This document shows, piece after piece, positions 27,090 to 32,000 of a stretch of 32,000 nt of DNA. The number at the start of each line of letters is the position of its first letter. The stretch's first letter is position 1. Source of the DNA: Bacteroidota bacterium. GTDB lineage: Bacteria > Bacteroidota > Bacteroidia > Chitinophagales > Chitinophagaceae. Below the pieces are notes generated by a model. It did no database searches and was not told the origin of the DNA. It saw nothing but the letters and a program-made list of their open reading frames with translations. Position numbers and translations under genes: made by a program. The stretch is taken from positions 366,717 to 398,716 of the forward strand of contig JAFDXL010000009.1 in NCBI GenBank assembly GCA_018267955.1. Direction: 5' to 3'.

Positions 27090-28862
27090 TTATTTTGATA
27101 TCAACACCTTTTTCTCTACGACTACCCTACCATCAACAGACAGGTAGCATATAACTAGCCCTGGACTAGTATCTTCAGGAAGTCTTACGTTCAGGGTACC
27201 TGATTTTTCTTTGATTGGTATGTTCTCTGTGATCTTACGGCCCGCAATATCTACGACAGATAATTCGGCATGTTGTTCAATATCACTAGTGAGTGCATAA
27301 AAGACATTAAAATTATCAATAGCAGGGTTTGGAGAAACTAGCAGACTTGCCATATTCTCGTCCATTTTAGAAATTCCTGTAGTGCCATTTTTATTGTTCA
27401 GCATCCTCCCACAGTTTAGACTACTGGTCATGTTAATATTAGTAAATGTTACTTCTATCACGGAACTAGAAGCAAAGGAATCTCGTGGTACATAAAGAGT
27501 TTGAGGATAAGTACCAGTTGAATCCAACGACGTTGTCGAATCCAACGGACAGTTAGCCGTAGAATCTTTTAGCGATGCTGCTACAATACCGAAATAAATG
27601 TCATTATCAGAAGATGCAACTGGGTTAGAATTACCTGCCATAAAAAGATTTCCGTTCAGCATACCACCACCGTTAAAAATATCCATACTCATAACAGACT
27701 CATTACCGGGCAGGCTAAAATCTGTAGATGCAGATATGGAATTTGTAGTAAGAGAAGACACGTGGGCTACCCAAGTATCCATGCCTGTAACAACTCCAGT
27801 CTGTTCTGGATTATAAATGTTATTTGACGGCACGTCAGATATATAGATGTTATCATAAGTGATAGGTAGGGCAGTTGAGATATTTGCATAATAACGCGAA
27901 ATTGCGGTACCGCTTTTTACAACATTGACGGTTGCATTGTTGCCTGCCAGATCACTTCTAAAAATATAATGTTTAGTACCTGAACCTCCAACAAAACCAT
28001 CTAATATATAACCACTAACCAAAAGCTTGTTATTCTTCAGGAATATTTTAGTAGGCCATTCGCTGTTTATGAGTACATTCCCTTCCTTTCCAAAAGTGTT
28101 ATATCCAATATCGTAGTACTTAGTCCAAACGATACTACCATAGCTTCCGCTGAATGGATTATATTTCATGACAACCTGATCGTAATAAGTAGTAGTTGGT
28201 GGTGCTGTCCTATATGCATATCCCAGGATATACACGCTATTGCTATCAGATACGACACTTGTGAATACATCACTATTGTTACTCAATGGCAGCATCTGGT
28301 TATAGGTATTGGAAAGTGTAGCGCTGAAGACGCTTAAAAAGGCATCTACGCTACCGGGCGTAAAGTTATGGCTGCCTACTGCAACCAGGTTACCATTAAG
28401 CGTTTCGCAAACGCTATTGTACAATTCTCCAGCCGTATTTGTATTTGTGTCCCGAACAAATGCCTGGTATAGCAAAGTGCCTGTTGCGTCAAATCTATAT
28501 ATTGCAGCATTATTTCCAGTGTAAATGGAACTGCGACTTGCCGTACCTACGACGACAATATCGCCGTTCTTGGTAATGATCATATCATACAACAAATCAT
28601 CGCCGTTTGTGCCCCATTGCTTTTGCCAGAGGATATTGCCATCCGGATTTATCCTTAGCAATAGGTTGTCAGCGTTTGTTACATTGTTACTGGAATCAAG
28701 ATCGTAGATGTAGCCCGCAATGACGCTGGAGCCATCCGGCAAAGTTTTGATACTACGGGCAATTTCATTCCGGCTTGTTCCGATAGAATAGTGAGCGGTT
28801 TGTGCAATGCTGCCAATATAGCAACATACGGCAGCACTAAGTGCAATTAGTTTTCTCTTCAT
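27090..28862 (-). CDS. Secreted repeat (beta-propeller-like) protein with T9SS C-terminal sorting domain
   Basis: Signal peptide MKRKLIALSAAVCCYIGSIAQ. Recurrent segments of the form xGxxVxxGY/GT. The last ~80 aa fit the Por/T9SS CTD pattern (LLVSPNPAIDNFNVFY...VVDIAGRKI...GLVICYLSVDGRVVVEKKVLISK). Confidence 0.8.
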   Translation of the reverse strand: MKRKLIALSAAVCCYIGSIAQTAHYSIGTSRNEIARSIKTLPDGSSVIAGYIYDLDSSNNVTNADNLLLRINPDGNILWQKQWGTNGDDLLYDMIITKNGDIVVVGTASRSSIYTGNNAAIYRFDATGTLLYQAFVRDTNTNTAGELYNSVCETLNGNLVAVGSHNFTPGSVDAFLSVFSATLSNTYNQMLPLSNNSDVFTSVVSDSNSVYILGYAYRTAPPTTTYYDQVVMKYNPFSGSYGSIVWTKYYDIGYNTFGKEGNVLINSEWPTKIFLKNNKLLVSGYILDGFVGGSGTKHYIFRSDLAGNNATVNVVKSGTAISRYYANISTALPITYDNIYISDVPSNNIYNPEQTGVVTGMDTWVAHVSSLTTNSISASTDFSLPGNESVMSMDIFNGGGMLNGNLFMAGNSNPVASSDNDIYFGIVAASLKDSTANCPLDSTTSLDSTGTYPQTLYVPRDSFASSSVIEVTFTNINMTSSLNCGRMLNNKNGTTGISKMDENMASLLVSPNPAIDNFNVFYALTSDIEQHAELSVVDIAGRKITENIPIKEKSGTLNVRLPEDTSPGLVICYLSVDGRVVVEKKVLISK

Positions 28863-28897: not shown

Positions 28898-29140
28898 TTA
28901 GTGTTCCGACAGGTACAGGTGGTCTTTCTTCTTTACCTGCGTTTCCCCGCCCCACATCAGGTCGCTGTTCAGCGCCAGCGGATAGCCAAGCCTGCCCATC
29001 CTGCTAGAAGCATTGCCGATCAGCTCATCGGGGGTTACATTGTCCATGGCGGCTATCGCCCCATCCATAATGCTGGTATCGGAGGTATAGCTGAAGTAAT
29101 TTTTGATATAAGTGTTCTGGTTCAGGTGCAGGAATATTGC
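28898..29140 (-). pseudogene. GC-rich 3' gene remnant (80 codons plus stop) lacking a start codon
   Basis: The minus-strand frame reads AIFLHLNQNTYIKNYFSYTSDTSIMDGAIAAMDNVTPDELIGNASSRMGRLGYPLALNSDLMWGGETQVKKKDHLYLSEH*. The frame is open back to a TGA at 29186-29188, and the first ATG appears only at codon 40. The block 28961-29020 has 36/60 G+C, against 17/60 at 29461-29520. Confidence 0.5.
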
Positions 29141-29262
29141 AATCTTTATATTGTTTCTTTTTTGCCTGGGCTTTAATTCTACTATTCAGCCTTCACGGCG
29201 TTGGCACCATTCATCGTTCGAATGACTATTTGCCAAGATGTTCGCTATGACAGTTTTTCAAA

Positions 29263-29919
29263 TTATTTGATTTCTACGCAAGAAATAATAAGCTTGTTCC
29301 CATTCTTGATATAATCTATTTCTGTATAAAGAGGCAGCATATATTTTTGATCAACAAGCTGAAAACCTTTGTAAGGTTCCTCATGTGTATATAAATGTTC
29401 TATTCTATTGAGATCGAAGACAAATACCTTTCTTTTATTTTTGTCAATAGAATAATAATCTTCCTTATTAGAGTAGAAATAATCTGCCCGAATAAAAAAA
29501 TAATTCAGATTAACATCCACAAATCTAGCGGTCCCGTTTAGACTATAAATAGTATCTGTTATGGTTCTTTGAGCCCCATTCATTGCTCCAGGGCTGTCAT
29601 CCTCTATTAATCTGCGTAATATAGCATTAGGGTAACGTACAATGTATTGTCCTATGTATTCTTTTCTACTTACACTTCTAAACCGTTCAATTTGGACATT
29701 TCTACCGTTCACGGTGCTATCGGTAAAATAGCTCTTGCTAATAGATCTTACCACATTAAACTTATTCCTATCAATAATTACTGTGATTTTCTTGTAAGCG
29801 GTATCAATTTTAGCCGTCTTATTCGGTTGGATATATTTGGCTTGAAATACAAATATTTTTGCAATCGCATCTTCATTGAACCAACATAAAAAAAACAAAC
29901 ATGCAACAATTAATCTCAT
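29263..29919 (-). CDS. Hypothetical exported protein (218 aa); candidate second or orphan immunity protein
   Basis: Signal-like N-terminus MRLIVACLFFLCWFNEDAIA. It is AT-rich and lies downstream of the toxin-immunity pair. Confidence 0.55.
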   Translation of the reverse strand: MRLIVACLFFLCWFNEDAIAKIFVFQAKYIQPNKTAKIDTAYKKITVIIDRNKFNVVRSISKSYFTDSTVNGRNVQIERFRSVSRKEYIGQYIVRYPNAILRRLIEDDSPGAMNGAQRTITDTIYSLNGTARFVDVNLNYFFIRADYFYSNKEDYYSIDKNKRKVFVFDLNRIEHLYTHEEPYKGFQLVDQKYMLPLYTEIDYIKNGNKLIISCVEIK

Positions 29920-30033
29920 AATATTTTTTTTACTATAACGTAGCCTACATACAAACCTTCACTCTACTGTAACGTCTACTGCGTCTTAACATCGAACTTT
30001 GTCGATCATTAACATTTCGGGTACACCATCCTA

Positions 30034-30474
30034 CTAGTTATTATAATTAGTATACAACTCATATTCAGCTATAACCGTATCAGGTAAATATTTACCCGTA
30101 TAATCGAACCCTAACCGGATGTACGCTTCTTCCAAATGATTGCTTTCGTCGTATCCTTTATGTATGGGAATGATGATATTTTCTAACTTTCTTATACCTC
30201 TTAAAGTGTCGTATAGTATTTCCCATTTTCTTTGAGAGGGAGTTCCATATTTTTCAAAAAGATCGTGAGCTCTATTTATATCTGATTTCACAATAAATTT
30301 CCATTTAAAATTATATAAATCGGAATCTAACAAAGCATATGCTGCTTTATCATCATTCATGTTTATATACTTAACAAAACGTTGAGCTGTTGCTATTTTG
30401 TTATCCGCGTTACGTTTAAAAGCACAGCTCGCAAATAAAACCGCGATACTAAAAAATAAGATTTTCCTTTTCAT
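30034..30474 (-). CDS. Lipoprotein (146 aa); candidate cognate immunity protein
   Basis: Lipobox VLFASC. The start lies 10 nt after the toxin stop on the same strand, and the gene shares the toxin's AT-rich composition. Confidence 0.6.
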   Translation of the reverse strand: MKRKILFFSIAVLFASCAFKRNADNKIATAQRFVKYINMNDDKAAYALLDSDLYNFKWKFIVKSDINRAHDLFEKYGTPSQRKWEILYDTLRGIRKLENIIIPIHKGYDESNHLEEAYIRLGFDYTGKYLPDTVIAEYELYTNYNN

Positions 30475-30484
30475 TTAGAATATT

Positions 30485-32000
30485 TTACTTGGTATTGTTA
30501 TGCCAGTCACCACTATTCCACCAGCCACCTTTACCGCCACTAGCTTTATTGACATTCGAAATATCTCTATACTTATCCACCATTTCAGGTTGTGTTTTAA
30601 TACCATTTTTAGATCCTAATTTAAATGCTGTTTCCATTAAGTTAATTAGATATCCAGTTTGCTGTTCAATGACCTGATTTGATTTACCTTTAATATTTAC
30701 ACTTGGCAAAGTGCCATCCATGAGCAAATTAATTAAGTCTGCTTTTCCTTTTCCGCTGGAAAATATACTTGGCAACCCATTTGCATTATTCACGATTTTT
30801 GTCGCTCTATAAAAAGCTCGTCTATCCCTCCCTTCTTTGGCACTTGCATTCCATAAACCTTTATTATATTGATTAAGAATGACATATTTGCCTGCATCAA
30901 CACTTCCTCCAATTGCATCGGCGGCTTCATATCTGCCTAGCGATTTAGAACCAGAAACAATTCCTTTTGAAGAACTTGTTGCTTCTGGAGAGGCATCATC
31001 GGCTTGTGCAGGATCTAACCATTCAGGAATTCCAGGCCTACCATCAATGTATTCACCATTATAATCCGAACCATTAATACCTACAGGAGCGCCTAAACTA
31101 TAGCCGACATGACCTCGGCTATCTAATAGTTCTACAGGAATATTACTTTGAATGGTTTGAACCGTATAAAAGTCGGTAGACGGTTTTATTTTTGCAGATC
31201 CTGTATATTTCATTTGATACATAGCGCTATTAATAGGTAATAATTCCAGTCCCTCCAAGTCAATTCCTATTATCGGATTTTCTTGTGCAAATCCATAGGG
31301 AGTGTATGCCGGATACTTAACAGATAATGGATCTCTAGTATTAAACCTTGCTATCCTATCGTCATACTCCCTAAACCCATAATCCTGGAAGTTTCCAATC
31401 CCAGCAATCTCATTATCCTTCTCTTTGCCGTTGAACCCGAATCGGTACCCATCCCTCGGCACATCGCAGAGCGTATACGTGCTATAGACATAGCGTATTA
31501 ATCCTATATCAGTCACCGGTGGAATGTGTATCCTCGGGCTGCCGCCACCTGTAGCCTTCATATTCATCTGCCCGCTGCTGCTGGTGGGCGTAAAGCTGAT
31601 ATTATAAGTGCCGGTACTCGGTATCGATACACTGCCTATCTGGTTCCAGCCGCCCGAGCCGTCCGGCTCCACGATCTCCGCCATCCAGCTGCCTGCAAGG
31701 TCATCTATCGTTAAGGTAACCGTATAGCTCACATCCGTCTGCGGCAATACATAGGTACTGCTGCTGCCGATACCCGCGCCGCTACCCGTAATAGTAAGCG
31801 CATTGCCCGTTTCCGTAGTATTGGTGCTGAGGCTGGCGCCACCTATGGCCGTAGTGTTCTGTGTACTGCCCGATATCCTGAAACCTCCGCTGCCTGCCCC
31901 ACCCGTAGGATCGTTCAGCAATAAGCCGGGTTTAACTTGCAGCCGGTCTATCACCTGTGTGATGGTCACGCAGTTCTGCCCCGTGCTGTCTTCCACATAC
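30485..32000 (-). CDS. Polymorphic toxin, 3' part (partial; continues beyond the window): RHS-type core motif plus unrecognised ~250-aa C-terminal domain
   Basis: Core sequence DGYRFGFNGKEKDNEIAGIGNFQDYGFREYDDRIARFNTRDPLSVKYPAYTPYGFAQENPIIGIDLEGLE (nt 31244-31453). The frame is open to the window edge, so the GTG 'start' at 31996 is an ORF-track artefact. Confidence 0.85.
   Translation of the reverse strand, partial: YVEDSTGQNCVTITQVIDRLQVKPGLLLNDPTGGAGSGGFRISGSTQNTTAIGGASLSTNTTETGNALTITGSGAGIGSSSTYVLPQTDVSYTVTLTIDDLAGSWMAEIVEPDGSGGWNQIGSVSIPSTGTYNISFTPTSSSGQMNMKATGGGSPRIHIPPVTDIGLIRYVYSTYTLCDVPRDGYRFGFNGKEKDNEIAGIGNFQDYGFREYDDRIARFNTRDPLSVKYPAYTPYGFAQENPIIGIDLEGLELLPINSAMYQMKYTGSAKIKPSTDFYTVQTIQSNIPVELLDSRGHVGYSLGAPVGINGSDYNGEYIDGRPGIPEWLDPAQADDASPEATSSSKGIVSGSKSLGRYEAADAIGGSVDAGKYVILNQYNKGLWNASAKEGRDRRAFYRATKIVNNANGLPSIFSSGKGKADLINLLMDGTLPSVNIKGKSNQVIEQQTGYLINLMETAFKLGSKNGIKTQPEMVDKYRDISNVNKASGGKGGWWNSGDWHNNTK

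Follow-up and report, generated by a model that had tools for sequence, protein, structure and literature searches.

Orphan rhs tips can be activated by recombination, as was shown in Salmonella (PMC3967940), and orphan immunity genes spread without their cognate toxin among Bacteroidales (PMC12247911). Rhs toxins are also encoded in diderm bacteria without type VI secretion, and one may ask by what route they then get to their competitors. Here, we describe a locus of this kind from a Chitinophagaceae bacterium (GenBank assembly GCA_018267955.1, contig JAFDXL010000009.1). The window, i.e., the whole stretch of DNA that was analysed, spans 32,000 nucleotides (nt) of this contig (positions 366,717 to 398,716, noted G000:C10:366717-398716 in our numbering; coordinates prefixed by L006 or L007 refer to the same contig beyond the window end). 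Its last part carries a minus-strand open reading frame (ORF, 30485-31999) that stays open at the window edge, and then the genes of a lipoprotein of 146 amino acids (aa) and of a 218-aa protein. Comparative sequence analysis leads us to propose, with moderate confidence, that this region is probably an orphan rhs-CT/immunity cassette placed behind a full-length and Sec-exported giant Rhs gene. The architecture is ordinary for polymorphic Rhs toxins. What is new are the families of the C-terminal toxin domain (hereafter tip) and of the lipoprotein, both of which are, as judged from our sequence searches, undescribed and rare.

The 503 aa visible in the window are the 3' portion of an orphan of 689 aa (G000:C10:397201-399270, or L006 2202-4271), 555 nt of which lie past the window edge. 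The main Rhs gene ends 2.6 kb beyond the window and encodes 3431 aa with an N-terminal Sec-type signal peptide, YD repeats, and an Rhs-associated core. The YD repeat is matched by TIGR01643 at aa 1937-1965 (18.5 bits for a cut-off of 15.8), and Pfam RHS_repeat gives no match to this gene. The core is matched by the NCBIfam profile TIGR03696 (Rhs-associated core) with 30.3 bits in the main gene, slightly below the cut-off of 32.5, and with 34.3 bits in the orphan (aa 370-436). The orphan aligns gap-free with the main gene from aa 2776 of the latter on, with 7 mismatches over its first 376 aa, and the identity collapses from aa 377 (YRFGFNG) onward. The ATG of the orphan is an internal Met codon (aa 2776) of the main gene, and the orphan has neither a signal peptide nor an Rhs shell. 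The locus has the features of an orphan module: it is downstream of a full-length rhs gene, shares its 3' core, and lacks an export signal and a shell. It also has those of Rhs toxins, since the core directly precedes the tip, the main gene has YD repeats, and the tip is paired with a specific partner (see below). The original prediction, made from the letters of the window, of a polymorphic Rhs module with a variable and unrecognised tip is thus upheld by the TIGR03696 match and by the tip searches, which all came back empty. It also took the ORF for a polymorphic toxin. This holds for the module but not for a deployed toxin, because the ORF is an orphan that lacks both signal peptide and shell.

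Core sequences are present in three copies at the locus. Copy A is the 3' end of the main gene, copy B is the core fragment of the orphan and sits 2773 nt from copy A, and copy C forms the distal edge of the array, with a remnant of 56 codons (28898-29068 of the window). Copy C aligns with copy B along 331 nt and with copy A along 227 nt, at 95% identity in both cases. The homology of the three copies begins at one and the same nucleotide. Copies B and C have in common a leader of ~100 nt that the main gene does not have. Between copies A and B, we counted 50 synonymous and 12 non-synonymous differences in 387 codons, which gives a synonymous divergence (dS) of 0.22 and a ratio of non-synonymous to synonymous divergence (dN/dS) of 0.06; copy C has 6-8 synonymous differences to the two others, and 0-1 that are non-synonymous. 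The low dN/dS indicates that the copies diverged under protein-level selection, as parts of translated genes, and for this reason we rejected a recent local duplication left to rot. These values fit a scenario in which the core copies were once the ends of working genes, in this or in another lineage, and were later stacked by recombination. Copy B is itself a possible substrate for homologous recombination. We also observed that copy C abuts the start of the gene for a 590-aa protein sorted by the type IX secretion system (27090-28862).

The main gene has a tip of its own. Its last 223 aa match the phage lambda lysozyme, a lytic transglycosylase that degrades peptidoglycan (PDB 1am7, E 2.4e-22), a similarity that Pfam did not recognise, and its stop codon is overlapped by the gene of a 182-aa lipoprotein, which is likely the immunity gene of the lysozyme-like tip. 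One shared core bears two different tips at this locus, and the array runs from the main gene (tip 1 and immunity 1) through the orphan tip 2 with its partner(s) to a truncated third head. The association of a lambda-lysozyme-like tip with a lipoprotein shows that the carrier does bear envelope-acting tips.

The boundary between core and tip was expected at about nt 31244, followed by a domain of about 250 aa, and we placed it at 31250, with a tip of 254 aa. The YRFGFNG motif begins at nt 31447, and the core closes with the G of IDLEG at 31250-31252. The core end keeps the aspartates of both the YD and the DP motifs (...REYDDRIARFNTRDPL...). In Rhs and TcC structures, the tip is released by autoproteolysis through two conserved aspartates at the core end. 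By analogy, the core of the orphan would self-cleave to free the tip. The Gly/Ser/Thr-rich stretch had been read as a pre-core region taking the place of classical YD repeats. Its composition is indeed rich in these residues, but it is an insertion of 184 aa inside the core, and real YD-type repeats are readable further upstream, in the translation of the main gene, the orphan having none. The insertion is lineage-specific and has no match in Pfam or PHROGs; most relatives have 7 aa at this site, against 82 aa in a metagenome-assembled genome (MAG) of Chitinophagales (L011) and 320 aa in a Taibaiella MAG (L009). The core inserts resemble folded beta-rich domains, have no library match, and are located at the plug end of the Rhs cage.

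The composition of the DNA also changes along the locus. The G+C contents noted before (34/60 in block 31801-31860 and 22/60 in block 30661-30720) were recovered exactly, as was the gap of 10 nt between the stop codon of the orphan and the ATG of the 146-aa gene. In sliding windows, the G+C content falls from 0.55-0.58 to 0.32-0.34. It is 53-57% in the shared core, 43-48% in the body of the main gene, and 32-39% in both tip/immunity modules. That the modules are much richer in A+T than the core indicates that the swapped modules differ in composition from their carrier.

We searched for relatives of the tip in Pfam (queried with the single protein and with each of the 16 members), NCBIfam, PHROGs, PADLOC, and the PDB (with sequence and profile queries) and found no match in any of them. 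A word-indexed homologue search with the tip as lone query gave no relatives either. When 1.84 billion representative proteins were searched exhaustively with HMMER, a family of 29 clusters emerged, to which a profile search in a second collection added 6 members and a scan of metagenomes one fragment. The domain is C-terminal in all 29 clusters and directly follows a core end of the Bacteroidota type (...IDLDGLE). Most clusters (26 of the 29) are of 119-448 aa, i.e., orphan-like ORFs or fragments, and the three others are part of long Rhs proteins (767, 1011, and 1900 aa). The annotation of the member from Flavisolibacter tropicus is merely "RHS repeat-associated core domain-containing protein". 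In a sample of 401 genomes of the order, the tip is present in 5, and it is in single copy in its own genome. One member retrieved by the representative search (P0013, 405 aa) has its own N-terminal signal peptide and an unrelated head of ~100 aa, which joins the tip via just the last ~30 aa of the Rhs core. Its sequence suggests a toxin reduced to a minimum, secreted by Sec and devoid of the Rhs cage.

In the members of the family, a variable linker of low complexity separates a conserved N-terminal half (with motifs LPxNSxxYR, NIPxxL, and GxPVGxxGxD) from a helical C-terminal half (WNAxxKExxxRxxFYxAT and DLINxxxDGxLP). Seven polar residues are invariant (D62, Y67, N126, Y147, T150, N174, and D178), E139 is nearly so, and no His is invariant or nearly invariant across the family. 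The tip of the window retains all the family-invariant residues. It has no Cys and no segment resembling a transmembrane one (highest 19-residue Kyte-Doolittle mean of 0.58). We rejected a pore-forming or membrane-inserting tip because there is no hydrophobic segment, be it a hairpin or a glycine zipper. AlphaFold2 models reached a mean confidence (pLDDT) of 46 with 4 sequences and of 52 (51.7) with 10, and are confident at residues 134-242 alone, which form four helices. The fold search suggested by the original prediction returned nothing informative: the best match of Foldseek against the PDB has an E of 1.7, among generic helical matches such as TPR domains, and the PDB profile search gave no match. 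Lipocone/TelC toxins have a four-helix core with a conserved active-site His on helix 2 and an Asp on helix 4 (PMC12419801). We rejected this identity for the helical half of the tip, which has no conserved His and for which the PDB profile search did not return TelC; Foldseek gave no match here, in a check limited by the low confidence of the tip model. Our best guess, of low confidence, is that the tip is a soluble hydrolase or transferase acting on the wall or on lipid-linked precursors.

The tip is associated with the lipoprotein encoded behind it. We assembled ten tip loci, counting the one in the window, from genomes of species, metagenomes, and relatives (L009, L010, L011, L012, L013, which is the same as L019, L015, L016, L017, and L020). 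In ten out of ten, the ORF directly after the tip encodes a member of one lipoprotein family (126-165 aa in mature form), always with the lipobox Cys; in the window, the lipobox reads LFASC, in agreement with the lipoprotein predicted there. The proteins of the other loci are 15-31% identical to that of the window and connect transitively (window to L009, E 3e-14; L009 to L010, 6e-5; L010 to L011, 4e-8; L016 to L015, 1e-3). A profile of nine of them matches the tenth (L020, left out of the profile) at E 5e-9. In L019, which is an array of six cassettes, the profile matches solely the ORF behind the studied tip, which indicates that the pairing of tip and lipoprotein is specific.

The distribution of the two families is asymmetric. 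The lipoprotein profile matched all 5 tip-bearing genomes among the 401, and 4 further genomes in which the gene is found by itself, flanked by housekeeping genes (proS, clpX, dxs) and without any tip or Rhs fragment in the vicinity; one more match was a false positive. The stand-alone proteins interleave with the tip-linked ones, and the one adjacent to dxs is the closest relative of the lipoprotein of the window (33% identity, E 7e-20). The survey of homologous loci proposed with the original prediction has thus shown the same partner family behind every tip. Conservation of the downstream genes independently of the tip, which the prediction had named as evidence that would speak against it, was seen in one direction alone: the lipoprotein occurs without the tip in 4 genomes, and the tip never occurs by itself. 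Such a distribution, with tips always accompanied by the partner and partners that can do without the tip, is what one would expect of a toxin and its immunity protein. As far as occurrence can tell, this supports an action in the periplasm or envelope.

Two of the related loci are arrays of six or more orphan cassettes: L019 (1318-13071, GCA_038207175.1) and L010 (a Bacteroidetes MAG, contig JABDAV010000118.1). Each cassette encodes a protein of ~350 aa and a partner of 120-200 aa, and one cassette per array has the studied tip. The first gene of L019 has a tip of the ADP-ribosyltransferase type, according to precomputed Pfam matches. In multi-cassette arrays, each different tip is paired with a different partner.

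The 218-aa protein had also been proposed as an exported immunity protein. Its short hydrophobic N-terminus, ending in AIA before a K, makes a plausible signal peptide as read by eye, without a dedicated predictor, but the immunity role did not hold. The protein has no homologue in the nine other tip loci (best E 0.2), no family match in the libraries, and a single relative in 5.8 billion proteins (83% identity, on a contig of 1.1 kb); its gene is in single copy in its own genome. Being nearly an ORFan and missing from the other tip loci, it was rejected as a second immunity protein. Of the several immunity proteins foreseen, the 146-aa one is linked to the tip in ten out of ten loci and the 218-aa one to no tip locus. 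The 218-aa gene is unrelated cargo, possibly the leftover partner of a lost cassette.

Taken together, these elements outline a mechanism. The orphan, without signal peptide and Rhs cage, would not be deliverable as it stands. If copies A and B recombined, 2773 bp would be lost, with the lysozyme-like tip and its lipoprotein, and the orphan tip would be fused to the main gene. After delivery and self-cleavage from the Rhs cage, the soluble and Cys-free tip would attack a target in the periplasm or envelope of the rival. The lipoprotein, anchored on the periplasm side, would bind and block the tip in siblings, as well as in unrelated bacteria that have the lipoprotein only. The original prediction that the toxin acts in the periplasm or cell envelope keeps the standing of best inference, since the candidate antidote specific to the tip is apparently exported and lipid-anchored outside the cytoplasm; a recognisable fold of the tip or a homology to enzymes did not come to strengthen it.

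Several points weigh against our proposal of an orphan rhs-CT/immunity cassette with an envelope-acting tip. The model of the tip is of low confidence (pLDDT 52), no homology to enzymes was detected, and it is the lipoprotein partner, and nothing else, that designates the tip as periplasm-acting. The scans for promoters and terminators gave no signal above chance. The stand-alone lipoprotein genes could mean a housekeeping role, and since the ORF starts with an ATG, its independent translation may be conceivable. These points open the way to other explanations. If the lipoprotein were an accessory or housekeeping envelope protein, the tip might act in the cytoplasm or not be a toxin at all, which would agree with the copies of the gene standing alone beside housekeeping genes in 4 genomes and with a tip that has no recognisable catalytic motif. 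Yet the lipoprotein evolves very fast (15-31% identity) while tracking the tip in all ten loci, every tip of the arrays has its own partner, the stand-alone proteins interleave with the others instead of forming a separate conserved branch, and stand-alone immunity genes are documented (PMC12247911), so we find this explanation quite improbable. An immunity provided jointly by the 146-aa and 218-aa proteins is even harder to defend and seems very improbable to us: both are encoded between repeats B and C, in the AT-rich cassette, and both look exported, but none of the other tip loci has a homologue of the 218-aa protein, and in L010 and L019 the next cassette starts directly behind the lipoprotein gene.

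Other explanations concern the orphan itself. The cassette could be a non-functional relic, a displaced old tip in the course of decay. It has no export signals, and the truncation of copy C is evidence of deletions in the array. However, the three ORFs of the cassette are intact, the dN/dS of the core is 0.06, and the tip keeps the residues that are invariant in the family, which makes decay unlikely. The 689-aa ORF could also be expressed alone from its own ATG and have a role that does not involve delivery, e.g., expression of the immunity gene or action in the producer. The ATG start, the conserved leader of ~100 nt in common with copy C, and the lack of a terminator-like site toward the main operon would all suit such a role. 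We nevertheless consider it improbable, because the ATG corresponds to a Met codon inside the main gene, the Bacteroidota -7 motif (TAnnTTTG) was not found in the leader, and orphans elsewhere use different internal Met codons, in the conserved GMxMPGR motif, as their start. We thus retain the orphan cassette behind the giant Rhs gene as the best explanation of the region, whose features are listed in Table 1.

Table 1. Features of the orphan cassette and of its surroundings. Positions without prefix are those of the window.
Feature	Position	Strand	Remarks
Repeat copy C	28901..29231	-	truncated third cassette head: ~100-nt leader and first 56 core codons, then stop
Conserved element of ~50 nt with 6-bp hairpin	29180..29231; also L006 4382-4434	-	in the leader of copies B and C
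Protein of 218 aa, probable signal peptide	29263..29919	-	cassette cargo
Lipoprotein of 146 aa, candidate cognate immunity protein	30034..30474	-	lipobox LFASC
Orphan rhs-CT ORF, visible 3' part	30485..32000	-	689 aa in full, window-equivalent 30485-32554
Toxin tip of 254 aa, undescribed family	30488..31249	-	aa 436-689 of the orphan
Divergent core end of ~66 aa (YRFGFNGKEKDNE...RDPL...NPIIGIDLEG)	31250..31447	-	part of the swapped cassette, outside the shared repeat
Repeat copy B (core fragment)	31392..32000, in full 31392-32615	-	94.6% DNA identity to copy A over 1224 nt
Gly/Ser/Thr-rich insertion of 184 aa between GMLMPGR and YRFGFNG	31448..31999	-	inside the Rhs-associated core, 54-58% G+C
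Lipoprotein of 182 aa	L006 4529-5077		likely immunity gene of the lysozyme-like tip
Lambda-lysozyme-like tip	L006 5074-5745		last 223 aa of the main gene
Main Rhs gene	L006 5074-15369		3431 aa
Operon ahead of the main gene	L006 15380-19999 and L007 1-8079 (G000:C10:410379-422078)		conserved
Second giant Rhs gene	G000:C6:178578-194641		open frame of 3425 aa

The genetic context of the main gene bears on the delivery of its tips. The upstream operon encodes proteins of 953 aa and 390 aa, a Skp/OmpH-like chaperone, proteins of 207 aa and 1935 aa, and a LolA3-like protein. The 1935-aa protein has no known domain and has a YD-like repeat at its end. A homologue of ~2000 aa is encoded upstream of a giant Rhs gene, on the same strand, in ten out of ten loci of the genus, and the second giant Rhs gene of the genome has its own upstream partner of ~2100 aa. 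Neither TssC (PF05943) nor Hcp (PF05638) was found in the genome, which is 98% complete, and the search for PAAR gave no Pfam match. We rejected an Rhs effector delivered by a type VI secretion system (T6SS), given the lack of TssC, Hcp, and a PAAR match and the Sec-type signal peptide of the main gene. The conserved partner, together with the lack of TssC and Hcp, points to an export route independent of the T6SS, and the operon that precedes the giant Rhs gene might encode an undescribed system for Rhs export.

The leader of the orphans contains a conserved element (CCGAACGATGAAYGGTGCCAACGCCGTGA..GCT..ATAGTAG) whose 6-bp hairpin is invariant. In its own genome, this element is confined to the two orphan leaders. 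It is present in one to three intergenic copies in at least seven other genomes of the genus, among unrelated genes, and is thus not specific to Rhs loci elsewhere. It has no match in Rfam and shows no covariation.

These results bring to light a toxin tip family and, matched to it, a lipoprotein family, neither of which is in Pfam, NCBIfam, or the PDB. The tip, a small and soluble domain without Cys whose action is probably directed at the envelope, could reveal a new enzymatic activity or a new target. One may go further and speculate that the tip is the founder of a new family of envelope-attacking enzymes, that the lipoprotein also circulates as a stand-alone defence gene, and that the giant Rhs carrier, independent of the T6SS and dependent on Sec, represents with its partner an undescribed mode of delivery in diderms; we regard this broader view as possible but doubtful.

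The comparison with known systems clarifies what is common and what is particular to this locus. The Tae/Tai and Tge/Tgi pairs of the T6SS and the TelC/TipC pair, in which TelC is a lipid II phosphatase, also associate a soluble enzyme-like toxin domain, active outside the cytoplasm, with an immunity protein that is exported or lipid-anchored, but the tip described here has no sequence similarity or detectable fold similarity to any of these toxins. WapA of Bacillus subtilis and of Streptococcus suis (PMC12704120), which is exported by Sec independently of the T6SS, has, like the proteins of this locus, a signal peptide, YD/Rhs repeats, a tip with its immunity gene, and orphan cassettes. WapA is from Gram-positive bacteria and anchored to the wall, whereas the carrier described here is from a diderm and has the genes of a ~2000-aa partner and of LolA3-like and Skp-like proteins upstream. 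The immunity genes acquired by Bacteroidales are, like the lipoprotein genes, fast evolving and found without the cognate toxin; they counter T6SS effectors and are often borne on islands, whereas the lipoprotein genes are single genes among housekeeping genes (PMC12247911 for the Bacteroidales). The orphan rhs-CT/rhsI module of Salmonella Typhimurium LT2 (Koskiniemi et al. 2014, PMC3967940) is likewise a same-strand fragment downstream from the main rhs gene, where the shared core is followed by a different tip and a linked immunity gene. It also lacks signals for translation and export, and its homology to the main gene allows fusion. The carrier here differs in being a 3431-aa Chitinophagales Rhs protein with a Sec signal peptide and without link to the T6SS, the homology extends over 1.2 kb, and a leader of ~100 nt heads each orphan unit. 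By comparison with the module of Salmonella, the fusion of the orphan tip to its carrier would here follow from the sequence of the repeats, which would give the giant Rhs protein the orphan tip, paired with its own lipoprotein, in place of the lysozyme-like one.

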